DNA of 64,000 nt from Candidatus Thorarchaeota archaeon (GCA_016933575.1 JAFGAR010000081.1:201020-265019), one strand, 5' to 3'; counted from the first letter of the stretch, positions 2,713 through 36,187 are shown. Notes: generated by a model not told the origin, from the letters alone. Translations and numbers: made by a program.

Positions 2713-3654
2713 GTGATTATAGTGTCCAAAGAAAAGCAGAATGAAAACAATAGTGATACAGCATCCGAAGATGTGTGGGAGAAATGGCGTCGAGCAGGAG
2801 TAGTCGCCCGTGAAGCTCTTGCATTGGCACGACCGATGATTGAACCTGGTGTGAAAGTAATTGATATCATCGATACTGTAGAGAACTATATTCGTGAGAA
2901 TTCCTCGGGAACCTCATTTCCATGCAATGTATCGCTGAACAACATTGCAGCACACTATACCTCTCCCCTTAATGATGAAACAGTGATTGAGGCGGGCGAT
3001 CTTGTGACTGTTGACTGTGGCTCGCATGTTGACGGATGTATCGCTGACACTGCATTCACCATAGCTTTGAATCCTGACCATGAAGCTCTTGTCAAGGCAT
3101 CTGTAGATGCTACAAACGTAGCTATCAAGATGATGAGACCTGGTGCGAAACTCAATACTATTGGCGCCCTCATTGAAGACACTATCACTAGTGCAGGATT
3201 CAGGCCTATCAAACAATTGACTGGACACCAACTCAAGGAGTATGAGCTACACGCAGAAAAACAGGTTCCATGTGTATCTGGTAAATCAGAGGTTCTTGTA
3301 GAAGAGGGCGAGGTCTATGCTGTTGAGACCTTTGCTAGTACTGGTTCAGGGAATATCACTGACCTACCAAATCCAACTATCTATCAACTTCTTCCAATGC
3401 GCGTACCTTTGCGATTCAGCGGCTCCAAGCAGTTTGCAGGAATTGCTAGGAAGGAGTATCGTGAATTTCCATTTGCAGAGCGATGGCTTGCACAGCGTAT
3501 GAAGCATGCCACCCTAAAGATGGCTATCAGAGAGCTCCAACAGAATGGGGCACTCTTTGGTCACAAGATTCTTGCAGAGGAGAAGGGTGAGTTTGTGTCT
3601 CAACATGAGCATACAATAATCATCACAAAGGATGGTTATGAACAGACGACATGA
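2713..3654 (+). CDS. map: Methionine aminopeptidase type II
   Basis: FPCNVSLNNIAAHY, DCGSHVDGCIADTA, TGH, AVETF, SQHEHT. Confidence 0.95.
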   Translation: MIIVSKEKQNENNSDTASEDVWEKWRRAGVVAREALALARPMIEPGVKVIDIIDTVENYIRENSSGTSFPCNVSLNNIAAHYTSPLNDETVIEAGDLVTVDCGSHVDGCIADTAFTIALNPDHEALVKASVDATNVAIKMMRPGAKLNTIGALIEDTITSAGFRPIKQLTGHQLKEYELHAEKQVPCVSGKSEVLVEEGEVYAVETFASTGSGNITDLPNPTIYQLLPMRVPLRFSGSKQFAGIARKEYREFPFAERWLAQRMKHATLKMAIRELQQNGALFGHKILAEEKGEFVSQHEHTIIITKDGYEQTT

Positions 3655-3833
3655 GGTGCAGTATTTCGACACCCCCGACGATTCTCCGGTTCTTTCTTCG
3701 GTCAACACAGAAGTGTTAAAAGTCTATAATCTAAGTTATTCTATTGTGGGTCCCGGGAAACTGTCATCGGTGCTTTGACTTCTCTATGAATACTGGCGGT
3801 TACTAACCGGTTCCAACACTTGGAGGAGAGAGA

Positions 3834-4811
3834 TTGGACCGCATCCGTAGTACTGATGATAAGAAGGGAGCTGCCGAATCTTCCATTGAACTAATTTGTT
3901 GCCCAGAGTGTAAGTCTACTACCGTAGTTGAGGATACCACTCGAGGTGAACGAGTGTGCGGCGGTTGTGGTCTTGTACTATCCGACCATCGTATTGATAC
4001 CGGAGCCGAATGGCGTGCATTCAGTACTGAAGAGAGTGACTCTCGAAGTAGAGTTGGAGCACCACTTCGCTATACCGTGCATGATAAGGGACTCTCAACA
4101 GTTATTGACTGGAGAGATCGGGACACCTCTGGGAAGAAGTTGAGTCCGACACGAAGGTCGGAGATCTATCGATTGCGTAAATGGCAGATACGGTCTAGAG
4201 TACATTCGAGCATGGATCGTAATCTTGCACAGGCTATGTCCGAACTCGAACGATTGTCCTCACAGCTTGGAATCCCTGAACCAATTCGTGAGCTTGCAGC
4301 ACTTCTCTACAGAAAATCTATCATCAAGAAACTAGTCCGTGGACGAAGTATTGAAGCTATGGTGGCAGCAACGCTCTATGCTGCATGCAGGATACGGGAA
4401 AAACCCCGTCCTCTTGACGAGGTTGCTGATGCTTCGCGTATCGATAGAAAGAAATTGGGACAGTGTTATCGACTTCTTCTAAGAAATCTAGCAATCAAGA
4501 TCCCACTCTCTAATCCAGTCGCTTACATCTCCCGTTTTGCATCACAACTCGAACTCTCGAGCCCTGTGCAGCTCCGGACCGTTGAGATTTTGCAAAGAAG
4601 TCGCGATATTGGTCTCACAATAGGTCGTGACCCGCTTGGTCTTGCAGCGGCAGCAATTTACGTCGCCTCTATCATGTTAGATGAACGCCGGACACAACGA
4701 GAGATTGCTGAGGTCGCAAGGGTCACTGAAGTCACAGTACGCAATCGCTACAAAGAGATCGTAAAGAAGCTCAGTATTGATTCCATGGGTCTTGAACCTA
4801 TAGAACACTGA
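3834..4811 (+). CDS. tfb: Transcription initiation factor IIB (paralog 1)
   Basis: CPEC/CGGCG Zn ribbon, GAEWRAF, two cyclin repeats, VTEVTVRNRYKE. Confidence 0.95.
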   Translation: MDRIRSTDDKKGAAESSIELICCPECKSTTVVEDTTRGERVCGGCGLVLSDHRIDTGAEWRAFSTEESDSRSRVGAPLRYTVHDKGLSTVIDWRDRDTSGKKLSPTRRSEIYRLRKWQIRSRVHSSMDRNLAQAMSELERLSSQLGIPEPIRELAALLYRKSIIKKLVRGRSIEAMVAATLYAACRIREKPRPLDEVADASRIDRKKLGQCYRLLLRNLAIKIPLSNPVAYISRFASQLELSSPVQLRTVEILQRSRDIGLTIGRDPLGLAAAAIYVASIMLDERRTQREIAEVARVTEVTVRNRYKEIVKKLSIDSMGLEPIEH

Positions 4812-4867
4812 TCTCTCGCTCACTCTACCTGCAATAGTACTAACATGTGTTGAGGATTGGTTATATG

Positions 4868-5080
4868 CTACCTTCTTCCAGTCTGTTGGAATGACCAATC
4901 GACCTGAACCATTTGTTCTGGGAATCCAAGCTTTGACAAGACGTCTCCAATGACCCCTCTATGATCTCCTTGCAGTTCAATATGGCCATGTTTTGCGGCT
5001 CCTCCGCAAGCAAGCTTGGCTTTCAGTTTTGTAGCCAAATCACCAAGGTCAATATTCTTGTCAAAACCTTCAAGAATTAT
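4868..5080 (-). pseudogene. sui1: Displaced 3' fragment (70 codons + TAG, no start) of translation initiation factor aIF1/SUI1
   Basis: Translates IILEGFDKNIDLGDLATKLKAKLACGGAAKHGHIELQGDHRGVIGDVLSKLGFPEQMVQVDWSFQQTGRR*. By hand count, 58/70 aa are identical to 7886-8098. Confidence 0.93.
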
Positions 5081-5083
5081 GTT

Positions 5084-6208
5084 TTAGTTTCTAAAGAGTC
5101 CTAATGACATTTGGATGTGTTTTTTCATTTCTTCTGACATGCATATTACTTCAGATTGATACTTCTTGAATTCATCACGGGATGAGAAATCCAATGTGTG
5201 TACAGTAAAACCTGATTTTTTAAAAGCATCAAAGATGGTCTGTACATTCTGTTTTGAGTAATTATTAACAATCTTTCTATCCAAATTCTTAAGGATTTCA
5301 TAGCCGTATGCTGTGTAAAGAAACGTATCCCACTGGGGTCTGTTTCTAAGAACAGGTAACTTGATTCGCTCCATCTCTTCTTGTCTTATCTCTAGAATTA
5401 ATTTACTCAGTCTTGCACATTCTGCATTCTCAAGGAAATTGTCATTAATGACTATTCCCACAGTAGACCTTCCAGTTTCCACTTGGTCACACATTGTTTC
5501 AATAACAACAGGTTCGAGAGTTCTCTTTACATTTTCAATACTTGTGTCTGGAGGTATCTCAAGAATAAGTTCCAGCAAATCCTTTTCTAATAACCCATAT
5601 TGTCCAAGACTCAATCCGTTTAAGACACTAGTTTGAGCAGTGATATGTGATGTTCTTCCTTTCACAACCTCTAGCTGGGTATGAATAGGTTCCCAAGCCT
5701 GTATATTCTCTAATGGCTTATATTTTATCTTGTAAGGTGACCCTCTTGTGAATCCCCAGAAGTCATTTGTGTCAAGCCAAGTACTCACATCACTTCCTAT
5801 TTGAAAATAAACTGGGTCATCCTCTGATACGTGTTGGAGTGATTCAAAGAGTGGTGTGATATCCCAAGGCATACTCAGAAGTCCACAAACTGTCACATCA
5901 ATACTTCTAACATTCTTGAGTCTGGCCAAGGGGCATAGACTCATCTCTGTTAAGTATTGAAATCCATTTAGTTTTAATGACCTAAAATTAGTGAAGTCGG
6001 CGAGTCCGGAGAGGTCAATAGAAACGTATTTCGGTTCATTATAGCCCTGCATACTAGCTCCATACAGTTCGATATAGTCCTTTTGATATCCTCGTAAAAT
6101 TTCCTCTACTTCCGACTGGTGAATCTCTTCTTGTTCGGTTTTAAATTTCAGATATGCCTTTGAACTCATTACGTTGATTTTTACTGCATCAGTCAATTTA
6201 AGACTCAC
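5084..6208 (-). CDS. Hypothetical protein with a short LRR-like N-terminal segment
   Basis: 374-aa AT-rich ORF; IDLSGLADFTNFRSLKL / MSLCPLARLKNVRSIDV / DITPL repeats. Confidence 0.6.
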   Translation of the reverse strand: MSLKLTDAVKINVMSSKAYLKFKTEQEEIHQSEVEEILRGYQKDYIELYGASMQGYNEPKYVSIDLSGLADFTNFRSLKLNGFQYLTEMSLCPLARLKNVRSIDVTVCGLLSMPWDITPLFESLQHVSEDDPVYFQIGSDVSTWLDTNDFWGFTRGSPYKIKYKPLENIQAWEPIHTQLEVVKGRTSHITAQTSVLNGLSLGQYGLLEKDLLELILEIPPDTSIENVKRTLEPVVIETMCDQVETGRSTVGIVINDNFLENAECARLSKLILEIRQEEMERIKLPVLRNRPQWDTFLYTAYGYEILKNLDRKIVNNYSKQNVQTIFDAFKKSGFTVHTLDFSSRDEFKKYQSEVICMSEEMKKHIQMSLGLFRN

Positions 6209-6258
6209 TGTGATTGTTGATTTATCATCTCCTTGATGAATATTCGAGTGAAGCTAGA

Positions 6259-7032
6259 TTAATCATGCAGACTTCCAAAGGCGTACTGGTCACGAGATGC
6301 TGCGAAGTTAATTGCCAGTAATGGTTCATCTGTTGAGCTTGTGCTGAACACATTGGGCTTATCGAGGCCGCTATCAGTGAGCGACCATCCCACCATCTCA
6401 GTATAGCCGAAGTTGACATCATGGGGAACTGAGAGCTTCCCATTCATGCCCTCAGGGAGGTCTACGAACACATTGAGGATTGTAAAGAAGGAGAGTTCTA
6501 CATTCAGACCTGTATCCGTGAAGTTCACGTTCTCTGTGAAGATGATGTTGCAGATGCCTTCATTGGTACTGATTTTGACGTCCTGACCTGCAAGCTCTGC
6601 CCCATTGTCATAAATTAGTGTAACATTCAGATTACGACCATCAATGAAGACCTGATAGTAGGTGGCAGTTCCAAGGATCACATCAATAGATGCTATCTTG
6701 TAATCACCCATTCCATCAAGGACTAGATGGTAAGCATCTGGATCGTATGATGGCTCGTAGAGAGAGTAGTGATGATGCATTCCGGGTTCATACTGAACCA
6801 CATCTATGGAATAGAGAAGATTGGGATTGTCCACAAAGGTGATGGTGACGTTTGTCGATGGTGCGCGGAGGGCTCTTAGGAATAACACAGCATGTTTGGT
6901 ACTTCCAGCAGGATAGGCGCACTCGTAGTGGAAATGAGTCTGAACCAAGGGGATACCTACGAACACCACCAGACCCACCACTACAATGACTCCCACACTG
7001 ATTGAGACCATTTTTCTTCGTTCCATTCTCAC
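6259..7032 (-). CDS. Membrane-anchored protein with a beta-rich extracellular domain
   Basis: Basic N-terminus followed by one hydrophobic helix; several NxT sequons; GAGGTGA RBS upstream. Confidence 0.7.
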   Translation of the reverse strand: MRMERRKMVSISVGVIVVVGLVVFVGIPLVQTHFHYECAYPAGSTKHAVLFLRALRAPSTNVTITFVDNPNLLYSIDVVQYEPGMHHHYSLYEPSYDPDAYHLVLDGMGDYKIASIDVILGTATYYQVFIDGRNLNVTLIYDNGAELAGQDVKISTNEGICNIIFTENVNFTDTGLNVELSFFTILNVFVDLPEGMNGKLSVPHDVNFGYTEMVGWSLTDSGLDKPNVFSTSSTDEPLLAINFAASRDQYAFGSLHD

Positions 7033-7064
7033 TCACCTCTCACTTCTCGTGTTCGAATTTATGT

Positions 7065-7772
7065 TCATCGCATATTCCCCAGCATGACAGGGATACGCAT
7101 AACGAGCATAGCCATGTTCAGACTTAATGCAATTGAGGGAAGTATCAGTCTAGCCTTACTTGCTTGTATCCTTGTTGAACCGTCTTCCAAGGTGACAAGC
7201 GAGATTCCTCTCCTCCCCATTGCCCGAAGCAGTCCACTGGTGATGATGGAGAGCGTCATGGCAGTGAAGAAGACCTCTCCGCCGCCTATTGGTTGTGCGC
7301 TCTTATCATACCGGAGAACATTATCGAAGGCCATCTCAAAGATGACCTCGCCAACCAGTTCAAAATACTCTTTGACTCCACGATAGAGTAACGAGCCCAG
7401 CTCTCGGGCTGAACTCATCTGAGAGATCTTCTTCAGGGTACTACTGAAGCCGAGGTCAAGCAGGTCATCTATCGTTGTCCCGAATCGACTGAGAACACTG
7501 CTTCCAGTACGTCGTAGCCCTGCACCTAACGCTCCAAGGTCTGCAAAGTTCTCTGCAAGGACTCCACCGAACCTGTTCCCTGCCCACCTAGCAAATCTTC
7601 CAAGACCCTTCGCTGCGGCCCCAATGCCAAAGGAGATACCGTTTGATAATGCTTCGGTCAGGATGAGGTTCCATCCTTGGTCAGAAGTGATACCCCAGAT
7701 ACTGAAGTTACCGATGTAGTTCCTGTCAACTCCAAGAGCCTGCATGGCACCAAGCAGGATGTGGTCGAACAT
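7065..7772 (-). CDS. Gly/Ala-rich hydrophobic protein, possibly an orphan C-terminal fragment of a larger protein
   Basis: 235-aa ORF, GISFGIGAAAKGLGRF, two C-terminal hydrophobic segments. Confidence 0.55.
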   Translation of the reverse strand: MFDHILLGAMQALGVDRNYIGNFSIWGITSDQGWNLILTEALSNGISFGIGAAAKGLGRFARWAGNRFGGVLAENFADLGALGAGLRRTGSSVLSRFGTTIDDLLDLGFSSTLKKISQMSSARELGSLLYRGVKEYFELVGEVIFEMAFDNVLRYDKSAQPIGGGEVFFTAMTLSIITSGLLRAMGRRGISLVTLEDGSTRIQASKARLILPSIALSLNMAMLVMRIPVMLGNMR

Positions 7773-7791
7773 GGGCCACGATTTTTGTCCA

Positions 7792-7830
7792 CCCCTCCTA
7801 GTCCCCCGACCTCCACCCCCACCACTCCCC
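7792..7830 (-). other. G-quadruplex-type motif G4-N6-G5-N8-G5-N7-G4
   Basis: Plus-strand C tracts at 7792-95, 7803-07, 7816-20, 7827-30. Confidence 0.55.
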
Positions 7831-7885
7831 TTTTTCCTTTTTTGTTTCTAAGCATGTATAATTGAAACACGTTCTCGAATTGATT

Positions 7886-8230
7886 CTATCTTCTTCCAGT
7901 CTGCTGGAATGACCAATCTATGTTGATTGCTTCTTTTGGAAATCCGAGTTTTTCCAGAACTTCTCCTATATTTGCCCTATGGTCTCCCTGCAGCTCGATA
8001 TGACCGTGTTTTGCAGCTCCTCCACAGGCAAGCTTGGCTTTCAACTTCGTGGCAAGGTCGTTTAGATCGATATTTTTATCGAAGCCTTCTAAGATCAAAG
8101 TCAAACGACCCCATTTACGGCGCTCGACAGTCACATTAATTCTTGCCTCTTCCTGAGCGATTGTTTCGCACACACAGAGATCCTGAGGCAAACCACAATT
8201 CGGGCAGATTCCGCCTTCGTCGTTACTCAC
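7886..8230 (-). CDS. sui1: Translation initiation factor aIF1/SUI1
   Basis: CPNCGLPQDLCVC, KLKAKLACGG, IELQGDHR. Confidence 0.95.
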   Translation of the reverse strand: MSNDEGGICPNCGLPQDLCVCETIAQEEARINVTVERRKWGRLTLILEGFDKNIDLNDLATKLKAKLACGGAAKHGHIELQGDHRANIGEVLEKLGFPKEAINIDWSFQQTGRR

Positions 8231-8376
8231 GCATTTATGTACTCCTGAGATTTAGTTATAGCAATATGCTAAGGGAAGAGAGCCCTCTCGTACATATAAG
8301 TTATGCTTTACCCTATCAAAATAAAAAAGATGCGTAAAAGAGCAAGAATTAAGCGGAAAAACAGACCCAAGAAACT

Positions 8377-9969
8377 ATGATGTCCGACTCTGTACTCATC
8401 ATCGATGCATTAAGCGCTGGGTCTGGGAAACGAACCAGTTCTAGGGATTCTATCGGTTGTGGACCCAGAAGCGTAGCAGGGATTTTTGAGAAGCATGGAT
8501 TTGACTGCAGAATCTATAGGGCTGAAGAGATTCTTGAGAAAAAGAGTATAATGAGAAAGTTCGATCACATTGCTATCAGCTCTATGACCATGGACATGCC
8601 AGCTACTAGGAAGATCATGAACCTGTGGCGGAGCGGGGCTCGACATTCTGGTAGAGCTATTATTGGAGGTCCTATCGCTTCAGATTCTCGGGTGATTATA
8701 AAATTAGGTGCAGATCTCCTCGTTATTGGTGAAGGTGAGGCTACACTCGAGGAGTTGATTGAGCGGGACTATTTCCATGAGAAGATCGAGTTGTTGGACG
8801 TTCTTGGAATTGCTTTTGCAATCAATGGAAGAGTAGCATATACAAGGCCTCGTGAATTCATATCATCAGAATCTCTCTCATCTGATTTTCTACCATCCAC
8901 CACACGAATACTTGACTACAAGGCGTATCAAGCAAGTAAGGTCTATGTGGAGGTAACTCGGGGTTGCTCCAATTTTAGAAGGACTCGACTTCCCCTGTTA
9001 AATGGAAGTCAATGTTCTGAATGTGGAAATTGCGATGCTGACGAACCCGAAACACGTTTAGATTGCCCAGAAGATATTCCGCCTGGTTGTGGATTCTGTA
9101 GCGTTCCCGGAACGTGGGGCCCTCCAAGAAGCAGGTCTGCAGTGAGTATTGTGAGAGAGATCAAAGAACTTCTGGACTTAGGGGTCCATAAAATTGTCCT
9201 CGAGTCTCCTGGTTTCCTAGACTACTTCCGTGGATCCGAACCCCTCACAGATCCCTGTCATCCACCAGCTAATCTGTCTGCTATCAAGGATTTACTAGGG
9301 CAGATCAATAATCTGCCTCAAGTGATTGATGGAACTGCTCACATTACCATTGAGAACATGAAAGCGTGCCTGTTTACTGATGAGGTTGCACAGATGTTAG
9401 TTGAGTCAATGATGTCGAGTTCTCCAAATATTGGTCTTGAGACCGGTTCTGAAAAGCACATGCATCAGATCGGTAAATGTGGAAATCCGCAGGATGTCCT
9501 TTCTGCTGTGAAAATTGCGAGTAAGTATGGAATGAAACCCTTTGTGTATTTCATCTATGGTCTCCCTGGAGAGGATGAAGACAGTGTGAACGATTCTATT
9601 ACCATGATGCGGCAAATCAGTGAGGCTGGAGCTGAGAGAATAATTCTGTATGGCTTTAGATCCTTGCCTGGGTCTGCCTTTGAGAACTACCCCTCCTCCT
9701 CAACCAGTAATCCACTTGGGGCTATACTCAGGAGGGAAGCTGATAGAATCAATCGAGTGAAGAAGGATGACTACATCGGAAAGATTGTTCGTGGTATTGC
9801 AGCTGAACAATCCTGGGTCAATAGAGGATACACCATGGTCTATCCCTTGGAAGAAGGTCCCCTCATGACAGTGCCTGGCGGCTTTTCTGCAGGAACACTC
9901 CTGAACATTCGAATAACCAAGGTTCTTAGTAGCGGCCTCCTTGAGGGAGTGGCCCTTCAATCATCCTAA
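8377..9969 (+). CDS. B12-binding radical SAM protein with probable C-terminal TRAM domain
   Basis: IIGGP, GEGE, VEVTRGC...GCGFC, IGLETGS, FIYGLPGE. Confidence 0.85.
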   Translation: MMSDSVLIIDALSAGSGKRTSSRDSIGCGPRSVAGIFEKHGFDCRIYRAEEILEKKSIMRKFDHIAISSMTMDMPATRKIMNLWRSGARHSGRAIIGGPIASDSRVIIKLGADLLVIGEGEATLEELIERDYFHEKIELLDVLGIAFAINGRVAYTRPREFISSESLSSDFLPSTTRILDYKAYQASKVYVEVTRGCSNFRRTRLPLLNGSQCSECGNCDADEPETRLDCPEDIPPGCGFCSVPGTWGPPRSRSAVSIVREIKELLDLGVHKIVLESPGFLDYFRGSEPLTDPCHPPANLSAIKDLLGQINNLPQVIDGTAHITIENMKACLFTDEVAQMLVESMMSSSPNIGLETGSEKHMHQIGKCGNPQDVLSAVKIASKYGMKPFVYFIYGLPGEDEDSVNDSITMMRQISEAGAERIILYGFRSLPGSAFENYPSSSTSNPLGAILRREADRINRVKKDDYIGKIVRGIAAEQSWVNRGYTMVYPLEEGPLMTVPGGFSAGTLLNIRITKVLSSGLLEGVALQSS

Positions 9970-35713: not shown

Positions 35714-36187
35714 TCAGGCACCTCTTGTCACGGGATTTGGACCAAGTTTCTTTACTCTCTCTACCATCTTGGTGATTCCTCGGGCGAAGACATCACCCTC
35801 TGCTGCAGAGGCCCACTGTAGGTGGACTCTCTCTGGCTCAAAACCCGCCTCAGCAAGAAGACTCTTCAATAGCACAAACCTCGAGCGTAATTTCAGGTTT
35901 CCGGATGTATAGTGGCAATCTCCCGGATGACATCCTGAGATGAGCACTCCGTCGGCTCCCTGGTAGAGGGCTTTTAGAATGAAGGAGATATCGATTCTTC
36001 CCGTGCAATTTACTCTAATAATGCGCACATTCGGAGGCATCTGCATTCGGCTTGTCCCTGCGAGGTCTGCCCCGGCATACGAGCACCAGTTACAGCAGAA
36101 CGCCACAATCCTGGGTTCAAAGCCTTTCTTTTTGCTCTTAGACTTGGTCTTTGCAGGAGCTGTTGATTTCGGAGTTATTGTGGTCAA
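35714..36187 (-). CDS. mvhD: Hydrogenase Fe-S subunit MvhD (Cys form)
   Basis: FCCNWCSYAGADLAG, CTGRID, GCHPGDCHY; TTG start after GGAGGT. Confidence 0.93.
   Translation of the reverse strand: MTTITPKSTAPAKTKSKSKKKGFEPRIVAFCCNWCSYAGADLAGTSRMQMPPNVRIIRVNCTGRIDISFILKALYQGADGVLISGCHPGDCHYTSGNLKLRSRFVLLKSLLAEAGFEPERVHLQWASAAEGDVFARGITKMVERVKKLGPNPVTRGA

Follow-up and report, generated by a model that had tools for sequence, protein, structure and literature searches.

A recent 3-kb islet insertion inside the aIF1 gene of a Thorarchaeon, with a start-less second copy of the distal part of the gene

Strict start-codon selection is enforced by aIF1 (SUI1), an essential translation factor encoded by a single-copy gene. 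Here we describe its gene in a 64,000-nt stretch of DNA, the window, from Candidatus Thorarchaeota archaeon GCA_016933575.1 (JAFGAR010000081.1, positions 201020-265019; genome G000, contig C57 of our set). A 3-kb block with three accessory genes lies inside the gene, and the distal part of aIF1 occurs a second time at the far end of the block. The event is a real and recent islet insertion. By comparison with related genomes, it is plausible that the working aIF1 gene is a chimera, with its distal part brought in by the islet. The same layout is found at a second gene, FlpD/MvhD. This wider pattern of islets that carry no integrase and duplicate the distal part of their target gene is the more interesting result, and a role of SUI1 as a dedicated attachment (att) site is not supported.

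The working aIF1 is the sole full-length copy in the G000 genome. It encodes 114 amino acids, the same size as in 22 congeners, and matches the Pfam SUI1 family PF01253 with an E-value of 1.2e-16 and 61.4 bits (curated cut-off 25.5). Its last 70 codons are present again in direct orientation, with a start-to-start spacing of 3,018 bp. This stranded copy is the sole second SUI1 match in the genome, and the match is far beyond chance. The two distal copies agree at 58 of 70 residues, 71.9% of bases and 42.9% of third positions. The preliminary description of the locus had given the coordinates, the protein identity and the quoted codon pairs correctly.

The stranded copy has no start codon, and its 70 codons run without a stop or frameshift. 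It lies tail-to-tail with tfb, as had been described, and 56 nt separate its end from the convergent TFB stop. The TAA of the adjoining cargo gene, open reading frame (ORF) 374, stands in frame just before it. Clear homology of the stranded copy begins at codon 46, and codons 44-45 are aberrant. Codon 45 is aberrant in the working gene also, where L replaces a T that is invariant in all other Thorarchaeal sequences inspected. If codon 44 of the working gene is joined to the stranded copy, a gene of 114 codons results, the length found in all congeners. Identical runs between the copies never exceed 17 nt; the longest are one of about 16 nt mid-gene and two of 14 nt each within the tail. At the proximal junction we found no identical att core, the longest run common to both copies being 5 nt.

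Comparing the tfb-sui1 region in related genomes confirmed an insertion into the gene, and about 20 empty sites were recovered. In these congeners, the B12-binding radical SAM gene, SUI1 and TFB follow one another without anything between, and the stops of SUI1 and TFB are mostly about 30-100 nt apart. The 3-kb block in G000 is therefore a true insertion. It is present once in the G000 genome, and none of its three cargo genes occurs at the SUI1-TFB locus of any congener compared. The 113-nt spacer behind the working aIF1 stop is unrelated to native SUI1-TFB spacers, as judged against the downstream sequences of 22 congeners. It also has no homology to the upstream part of the 570-residue relative of ORF235 in G016. 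The SUI1-TFB spacers vary among congeners, as do the FlpD-GNAT spacers. In G020, the SUI1-TFB spacer extends to 394 nt with no recognisable gene (L065:1843-2217, G020:C387), and the SUI1 of this genome has the highest synonymous similarity to the working distal part of the window (third-position identity 54%).

Among the 87 Thorarchaeia genomes searched, no second partial SUI1 copy was found outside G000 apart from trivial cases, namely overlapping contig ends in G016, a branch of the assembly graph in G019 and a contig of G055 that happens to begin at codon 43. The SUI1 contig breaks in G011 and G016 were considered as insertions and rejected, being trivial overlaps or single-nucleotide polymorphisms between strains. 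A degenerate 41-mer covering both copies had no match in metagenome contigs. The closest database proteins of the window carry Thorarchaeota source names, and the assembly has a completeness of 85.5% and a contamination of 6.9%.

Table 1. Features of the aIF1 locus in the window (contig C57, window coordinates) and of the FlpD/MvhD locus on contig C64 of G000 (contig coordinates)
Feature	Contig	Position	Strand	Remarks
TFB	C57	3834-4811	+	convergent with aIF1; Pfam TFIIB and zinc ribbon; conserved right-hand neighbour
Distal copy 2, codons 45-114 + stop, start-less, stranded	C57	4868-5080	-	genus-typical; followed by spacer in native position and TFB
ORF374, cargo	C57	5084-6208	-	low G+C; TAA stop in frame, abutting distal copy 2
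ORF257, cargo	C57	6259-7032	-	N-terminal membrane helix; partner of ORF235
ORF235, cargo	C57	7065-7772	-	glycine-rich, probably membrane-associated
Spacer behind working aIF1 stop, 113 nt	C57	7773-7885	-	unlike native SUI1-TFB spacers
Working aIF1/SUI1	C57	7886-8230	-	114 codons, GTG start; ORF list, Pfam PF01253
Distal copy 1, codons 45-114 + stop, within working gene	C57	7886-8098	-	atypical for genus
Tail of distal copy 1, last 10 codons + stop	C57	7886-7918	-	near-identical to tail of copy 2
aIF1 proximal part, codons 1-44	C57	8099-8230	-	one copy only
B12-binding radical SAM gene	C57	8377-9969	+	divergent from aIF1; Pfam; conserved left-hand neighbour
FlpD/MvhD	C64	134671-135132	-	intact gene
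Stranded FlpD copy, about codons 14-136, start-less	C64	130249-130623	same layout	4,422 bp downstream of FlpD

A self-comparison of the G000 genome for diverged direct repeats revealed one further case with the same signature, at FlpD/MvhD. Here, the insert contains five cargo genes, which are CHAT-like, prenyltransferase-like and Ras-like genes, an RHH/UPF0175 antitoxin and a PIN/DUF3368 toxin. The PIN stop abuts the stranded FlpD copy in frame, like the ORF374 stop at SUI1. The bodies of the two FlpD copies are saturated, with proportions of nonsynonymous (pN) and synonymous (pS) differences of 0.073 and 0.795, whereas their last 129 nt are homogenised (pN 0.030, pS 0.467).

Related genomes display different states of this locus. 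In G001, FlpD is followed by RHH (90% identical) and PIN (71%) genes and then by a frameshifted stranded FlpD with a homologous junction. G003 has a stranded FlpD behind different cargo, a membrane protein of 323 residues, and compared with G000 and G001 its clear homology starts about 4 codons deeper in the gene, so that the junctions of the three genomes fall within 0-4 codons. Short 3' remnants of FlpD remain in G022 and G015, and the site is empty in G006. In G001, the intact FlpD is continuous with that of the sister species G012 across the junction (43 of 45 bases upstream and 88 of 90 downstream), while the first 90 nt of the stranded copy are only 74% identical with the protein conserved. 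On these alignments, it is the junction-proximal part of the stranded FlpD that appears foreign in G001. The FlpD family is rich in paralogues. One of them lies inside the window at 35729-36115 (G000:C57:236748-237134) and is 51% identical to the FlpD gene on C64.

A probable second case at SUI1 itself comes from database proteins. The only close homologue of ORF374 in the protein collection is P0055/P0057, which is 58% identical and derives from an NCBI Thorarchaeota metagenome-assembled genome and a 4,877-nt JGI contig. P0053, a JGI protein of 78 residues on a 4,877-nt contig, is a SUI1 fragment whose homology begins at codon 46 and which has a frameshift near codon 95. Because both JGI contigs measure 4,877 nt, P0053 and P0057 very likely lie on one contig. 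If they are adjacent, another lineage has a related cargo gene beside a stranded piece of SUI1 that begins at the same point. Also relevant here is the 10,941-nt NCBI contig of MHA1390063.1. We did not find P0057 in metagenome contigs or P0055 in genome contigs, and P0055 retrieved only distant paralogues from the 87 class genomes. The best database homologues of ORF257 are 41-44% identical, and none is on the 4,877-nt contig. This contig is the sole hint of a further insertion at SUI1. The preliminary proposal that SUI1 is an integration site for an Asgard element is not supported in that form, and the 87 class genomes searched gave no second SUI1 insertion.

Several other SUI1 sequences deserve a description. 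The assembly graph of G019 splits exactly at the SUI1 stop (TAA versus TAG) after 75 identical bases (G019:C145:1-1000 and the end of C151). One branch leads to a methyltransferase-like gene of 235 codons and then TFB, and the other ends after 47 unmatched bases. This branching indicates population heterogeneity right behind SUI1. In G055, which is 95% complete, the sole SUI1 match opens a contig with codon 43, and TFB comes next (G055:C119:1-220). The bin yielded no match for the 42 codons before it, and the break lies at most 2 codons from the junction in the window. Among single proteins, the Thorarchaeal P0042 (90 residues) continues as SUI1 from about codon 52 behind an N-terminus of unrelated sequence, and P0041 is a Thorarchaeal SUI1 without codons 20-51.

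We then consider how the two distal copies of aIF1 have diverged. The comparison of nonsynonymous with synonymous change proposed at the outset gave pN 0.113 and pS 0.853, a sign of purifying selection with synonymous sites beyond saturation. From these values, nearly all the divergence accumulated under such selection, in working genes of separate lineages. The copies thus have separate histories. Saturated divergence beside an intact stranded copy speaks firmly against an old local duplication of the distal part or the whole gene, in which the copies diverged in place, cargo was inserted later and the stranded copy is a decaying paralogue. In favor of such an origin, the FlpD family has many paralogues and G003 carries two near-complete FlpD copies 1.7 kb apart. 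However, a fragment drifting unexpressed for so long would be wrecked, like the fragments in G001 and P0053, whereas the stranded aIF1 copy has no stop or frameshift and encodes a consensus-like protein. Moreover, a second SUI1 is present in 0 of the 86 other class genomes searched. We regard this origin as very improbable.

An assembly artefact, that is, a contig joined from two co-occurring strains or species, is the least probable account of the locus. The bin does have 6.9% contamination and contains twin contigs, C91 and C92, that are 96% identical. Nevertheless, returning from the ORF374 stop into codon 46 of SUI1 would require a common k-mer, and there is none. The same FlpD layout is found in the independent assemblies of G001 and G003, and the 265-kb contig C57 keeps synteny on both sides of the insert.

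Which of the two copies is native is a matter of balance. The stranded copy is typical for the genus. Against 21 congeners, its mean pN and pS are 0.093 and 0.730, compared with means of 0.090 and 0.715 among the congeners. The TFB of G000 lies about 1.2-fold (pN) and 1.05-fold (pS) above the genus mean, and scaling from it gives a native expectation of about 0.11 for pN and 0.75 for pS. The working distal part, in contrast, shows a pN of 0.151 and a pS of 0.843 against relatives, its pN going beyond the own mean of every congener (0.069-0.121). The terminal branch of the working distal part measures 0.19, that of the stranded copy 0.043, and the median is 0.016. The proximal part of aIF1 is ordinary (pN 0.054 versus 0.051 among relatives).

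Finer features agree with this contrast. Codons 46-54 of the stranded copy differ from those of the congener G006 at 1 of 27 bases. The codon usage of the genome prefers the codon of the stranded copy at 22 of 33 synonymous differences, and the third-position composition of this copy equals that of the genome, whereas the working distal part is T-poor. The working protein has AINI where every congener has MVQV or MVQI, its substitution of the invariant T45 falls right on the boundary, and no SUI1 more than 81% identical to the working distal part exists among 5.8 billion proteins. Across the genus, third positions and pS are so close to saturation that the event cannot be dated from them. The TFB of G000 is saturated likewise, with a pS of 0.745-0.81 and a third-position identity of 34-45% against each congener. 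A tree built from the distal 61 residues gives the working distal part a long branch and places both copies in one subclade, so that no donor can be named from it.

The tails of the two copies tell a different story from their bodies. The last 30 nt before the stop are identical at 28 of 30 positions, against 68% in the body. None of the 62 congener pairs of comparable body divergence reaches this value, and each G000 tail matches relatives at no more than 24 of 30. A permutation test on codon columns gave p of about 0.06. Both copies finish with QQTGRR, and the QQT ending is found in no relative.

We notice a series of points that weigh against an imported working distal part. The near-identical tails at SUI1 (28/30) and at FlpD are the expected trace of a distal crossover or repair tract, and on that view the working gene is native and the stranded copy imported; with an imported distal part in the working gene, the tails need an extra conversion event. 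The identity deficit of the working gene starts before codon 45, with codons 16-45 about 0.05-0.1 below the genus profile. Identity is normal at codons 61-80 and lowest at codons 81-110, so that there is no clean step at codon 45. At FlpD of G001, the intact copy is native-like and the stranded copy is foreign near the junction; at FlpD of G000, neither copy is atypical. The lack of an identical core longer than 5 nt at the proximal junction is awkward for a tyrosine recombinase, and the sampled genomes include no sister of G000 that shows the native allele. The chimera put forward in the preliminary description is therefore upheld in part: the genus-typical stranded copy and the outlying working distal part speak for it, but the shared tail, the missing step at codon 45 and the polarity of FlpD in G001 count against it. 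Weighing these comparisons, we put the chances of an imported working distal part and a native stranded copy at about even, and a native working gene with an imported stranded copy seems appreciably less probable.

For the route of entry, we tentatively favor a Campbell-type insertion of a non-autonomous islet with the working gene as a chimera, a reading that we hold with slightly less than even confidence. The 3,018-bp islet would consist of a diverged, start-less aIF1 segment (codons 45-114), the 113-nt spacer and the three accessory genes. We infer that it arrived on a circular DNA and entered by a single reciprocal recombination between the chromosomal aIF1 and the partial copy on the circle. 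This topology would necessarily yield a single full-length gene together with the cargo and a distal copy left stranded. Of the working gene, codons 1-44 would most likely be native and those from 45 to about 104 imported, while roughly the final 11 would have been homogenised afterwards with the native copy. It would be the native distal part that now lies stranded, after a very recent displacement. The recombinase would have come from outside the islet, either as an enzyme acting in trans at a fixed position or as host homologous recombination. Junctions that recur near the same codon with different cargo and no proximal homology suggest a site-specific step by a recombinase in trans. On the other hand, the homogenised tails, the absence of an integrase and the internal exchange point in G001 suggest homologous recombination or break repair.

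The same topology also works with the opposite polarity, which we rate as a serious but weaker contender. Here, the working aIF1 would be native throughout and the stranded copy would be the imported homology arm. The donor would be a circle with the cargo and a 5'-truncated aIF1 from an earlier congeneric host, formed for instance by aberrant excision that lost any integrase. The exchange would have taken place in the last 30 nt or so of the gene by homologous recombination or break repair. This fits the 28/30 tails with their private QQT ending and the tail homogenisation at FlpD, as well as the position of the longest identical runs, which lie mid-gene and in the tail, where homologous exchange is feasible, and away from the proximal edge. 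Also in agreement with it are the missing integrase, the ordinary chromosomal types of the cargo genes, the variable SUI1-TFB and FlpD-GNAT spacers and the polarity of FlpD in G001, and a junction travelling with the element would explain the equal start point in the window and P0053. However, the aIF1 of G000 would have to be unusually diverged at codons 45-103 only (T45L, AINI), with TFB and the proximal part ordinary. The working distal part fits the codon usage of the genome worse than the stranded copy does. In addition, an arm without function should decay if it is carried for a long time, and this one is pristine.

Homology-facilitated illegitimate recombination of linear DNA from another Thorarchaeon, as a one-off event, is an unlikely route. 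In this case, most of a donor aIF1 with its downstream genes would cross over by homology within codons 1-30, and its far end would be joined at native codon 45. Such an event suits the slight divergence that the working gene already shows before codon 45, the lack of an att core, integrase or target duplication, and the genus-typical stranded copy. It leaves the near-identical tails unexplained, and likewise the second locus where a cargo stop abuts the stranded copy and the junctions near the same codon in G000, G001, G003 and probably P0053. Furthermore, no sampled Thorarchaeon has such cargo behind SUI1.

We turn to the cargo. None of ORF235, ORF257 and ORF374 has a Pfam or PHROG match. 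ORF235 (G+C about 52%) aligns with residues 362-564 of the 570-residue G016 protein at 34% identity; it resembles the last third of some longer gene and appears to be 5'-truncated here. In G016, the gene for this longer relative is followed by a homologue of ORF257 (C20; L084:14321-16829). In G001, a degraded ORF235-ORF257 pair with stops lies on contig C4 between GDPD and GNAT genes. Both pairs sit in ordinary chromosomal or metabolic neighbourhoods, and no duplicated gene ends were found at these two sites. The ORF235-ORF257 pair seems to move as one unit.

ORF374 has a G+C of 35-39%, compared with about 45%, and is a distant member of a multi-copy Thorarchaeal family whose paralogues across the genus are 21-33% identical. 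Some members have plain leucine-rich repeats (LRR), in one paralogue clearly readable, while the LRR leads from the Atlas are weak. An identical version of ORF374 is present on a Logan contig of 1,853 nt. The twin contigs C91 and C92 of G000, 1,710 nt each and identical to 96% throughout, each carry an LRR protein of the ORF374 family and a neighbour gene. They are strain-variant twins kept in the bin, consistent with the 6.9% contamination. We rejected ORF374 as a recombinase, as it belongs to this LRR-like multi-copy family. A read-through fusion of ORF374 with the stranded copy was also rejected, for the in-frame stop is possibly due to chance and P0053 is frameshifted.

The insert lacks recognisable mobility machinery. 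It holds no integrase and no perfect att repeat, as the preliminary description had noted, and the ORFs of the insert have no transposase domain in Pfam. Genome-wide, G000 has one PF00589 match, on another contig (C189), a result that leaves out serine recombinases, for which no genome-wide search was made. Neither terminal inverted repeats beyond chance level nor a target duplication were found at the insert, and a 13-nt match between the end of ORF374 and the spacer is at chance level. An Rfam scan of positions 3500-9000 gave no match and no structured RNA. We rejected the insert as a transposon or insertion sequence, since it has no transposase, its inverted repeats are at chance level and it is single-copy. 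It was also rejected as an Asgard virus or plasmid, with no PHROG match and no relatives of the distal SUI1 part, ORF257 or ORF374 in the viral contig collection. No IntI-like gene lies near the locus as a sign of an integron; the search did not extend to attC structures.

That a second gene has this architecture, and that junctions recur across genomes, points to a general route for adding accessory genes without a visible integrase, and from these loci the route looks like a repeatable one. A bolder generalisation, which we put forward as a rather doubtful possibility, is that Thorarchaeia harbor a class of small integrase-less islets that carry a start-less replacement distal copy of one housekeeping gene behind the last cargo gene. 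With similar reserve, we speculate that such islets insert at a fixed codon (codon 45 of aIF1, about codon 14 of FlpD) and are mobilised by a recombinase that acts in trans or is unrecognised. If true, they would form a cassette system directed at particular genes, unlike either integrons or tRNA-targeting elements. The cargo gained in this way includes toxin-antitoxin pairs, LRR-like proteins and membrane proteins, which bears on the expansion of Asgard genomes. Its signature can be searched for systematically: an intact gene that is followed, after a few kb, by a diverged copy of its own distal part without a start.

One of the closest known parallels is the integration of phage 21 and e14 in E. 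coli icd, where a diverged replacement distal part keeps the gene whole. As in icd, the insert of G000 lies inside a housekeeping protein gene and has the remaining distal copy, in the same orientation, left stranded at its far end. Unlike those elements, the insert is only 3 kb in size, has no integrase or phage genes and lacks an identical proximal core; it is the tails that are near-identical instead.

In archaeal integrative elements, integration rebuilds the target gene without interruption, a second and partial copy of it being left behind, and att sites inside coding genes are on record (PMC8371274). Described Asgard elements encode an integrase and use tRNA genes or a short AT-rich motif (PMC8813620, PMC11529989). 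The best-ranked literature that we searched contains no mention of SUI1 as an integration target. Archaeal integrative elements encode tyrosine recombinases of the SSV, pNOB8, pTN3 or SNJ2 types and have identical att cores, whereas the G000 islet has neither.

Single-crossover 'pop-in' of circular DNA by homologous recombination is used in archaeal genetics. The loci in G000 share with it the direct repeats that flank the insert, a tract of identity at the exchange (28/30 in the SUI1 tail; pS 0.467 in the FlpD tail versus 0.795 in the body) and the lack of a dedicated recombinase. They differ in that the partners are only about 70% identical with runs of at most 17 nt, and in the recurrence of the junctions in different genomes, which would not be predicted from homologous exchange of a simple kind.

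Finally, the Rhs and CDI polymorphic-toxin loci are known for displaced 'orphan' 3' ends. As in these loci, a new distal part with accessory genes stands behind a conserved proximal part, and the old distal part remains downstream without a start. In contrast to them, the target in G000 is a translation factor and, at the second locus, a hydrogenase-type subunit, and the distal parts are functional equivalents, not alternative toxins.

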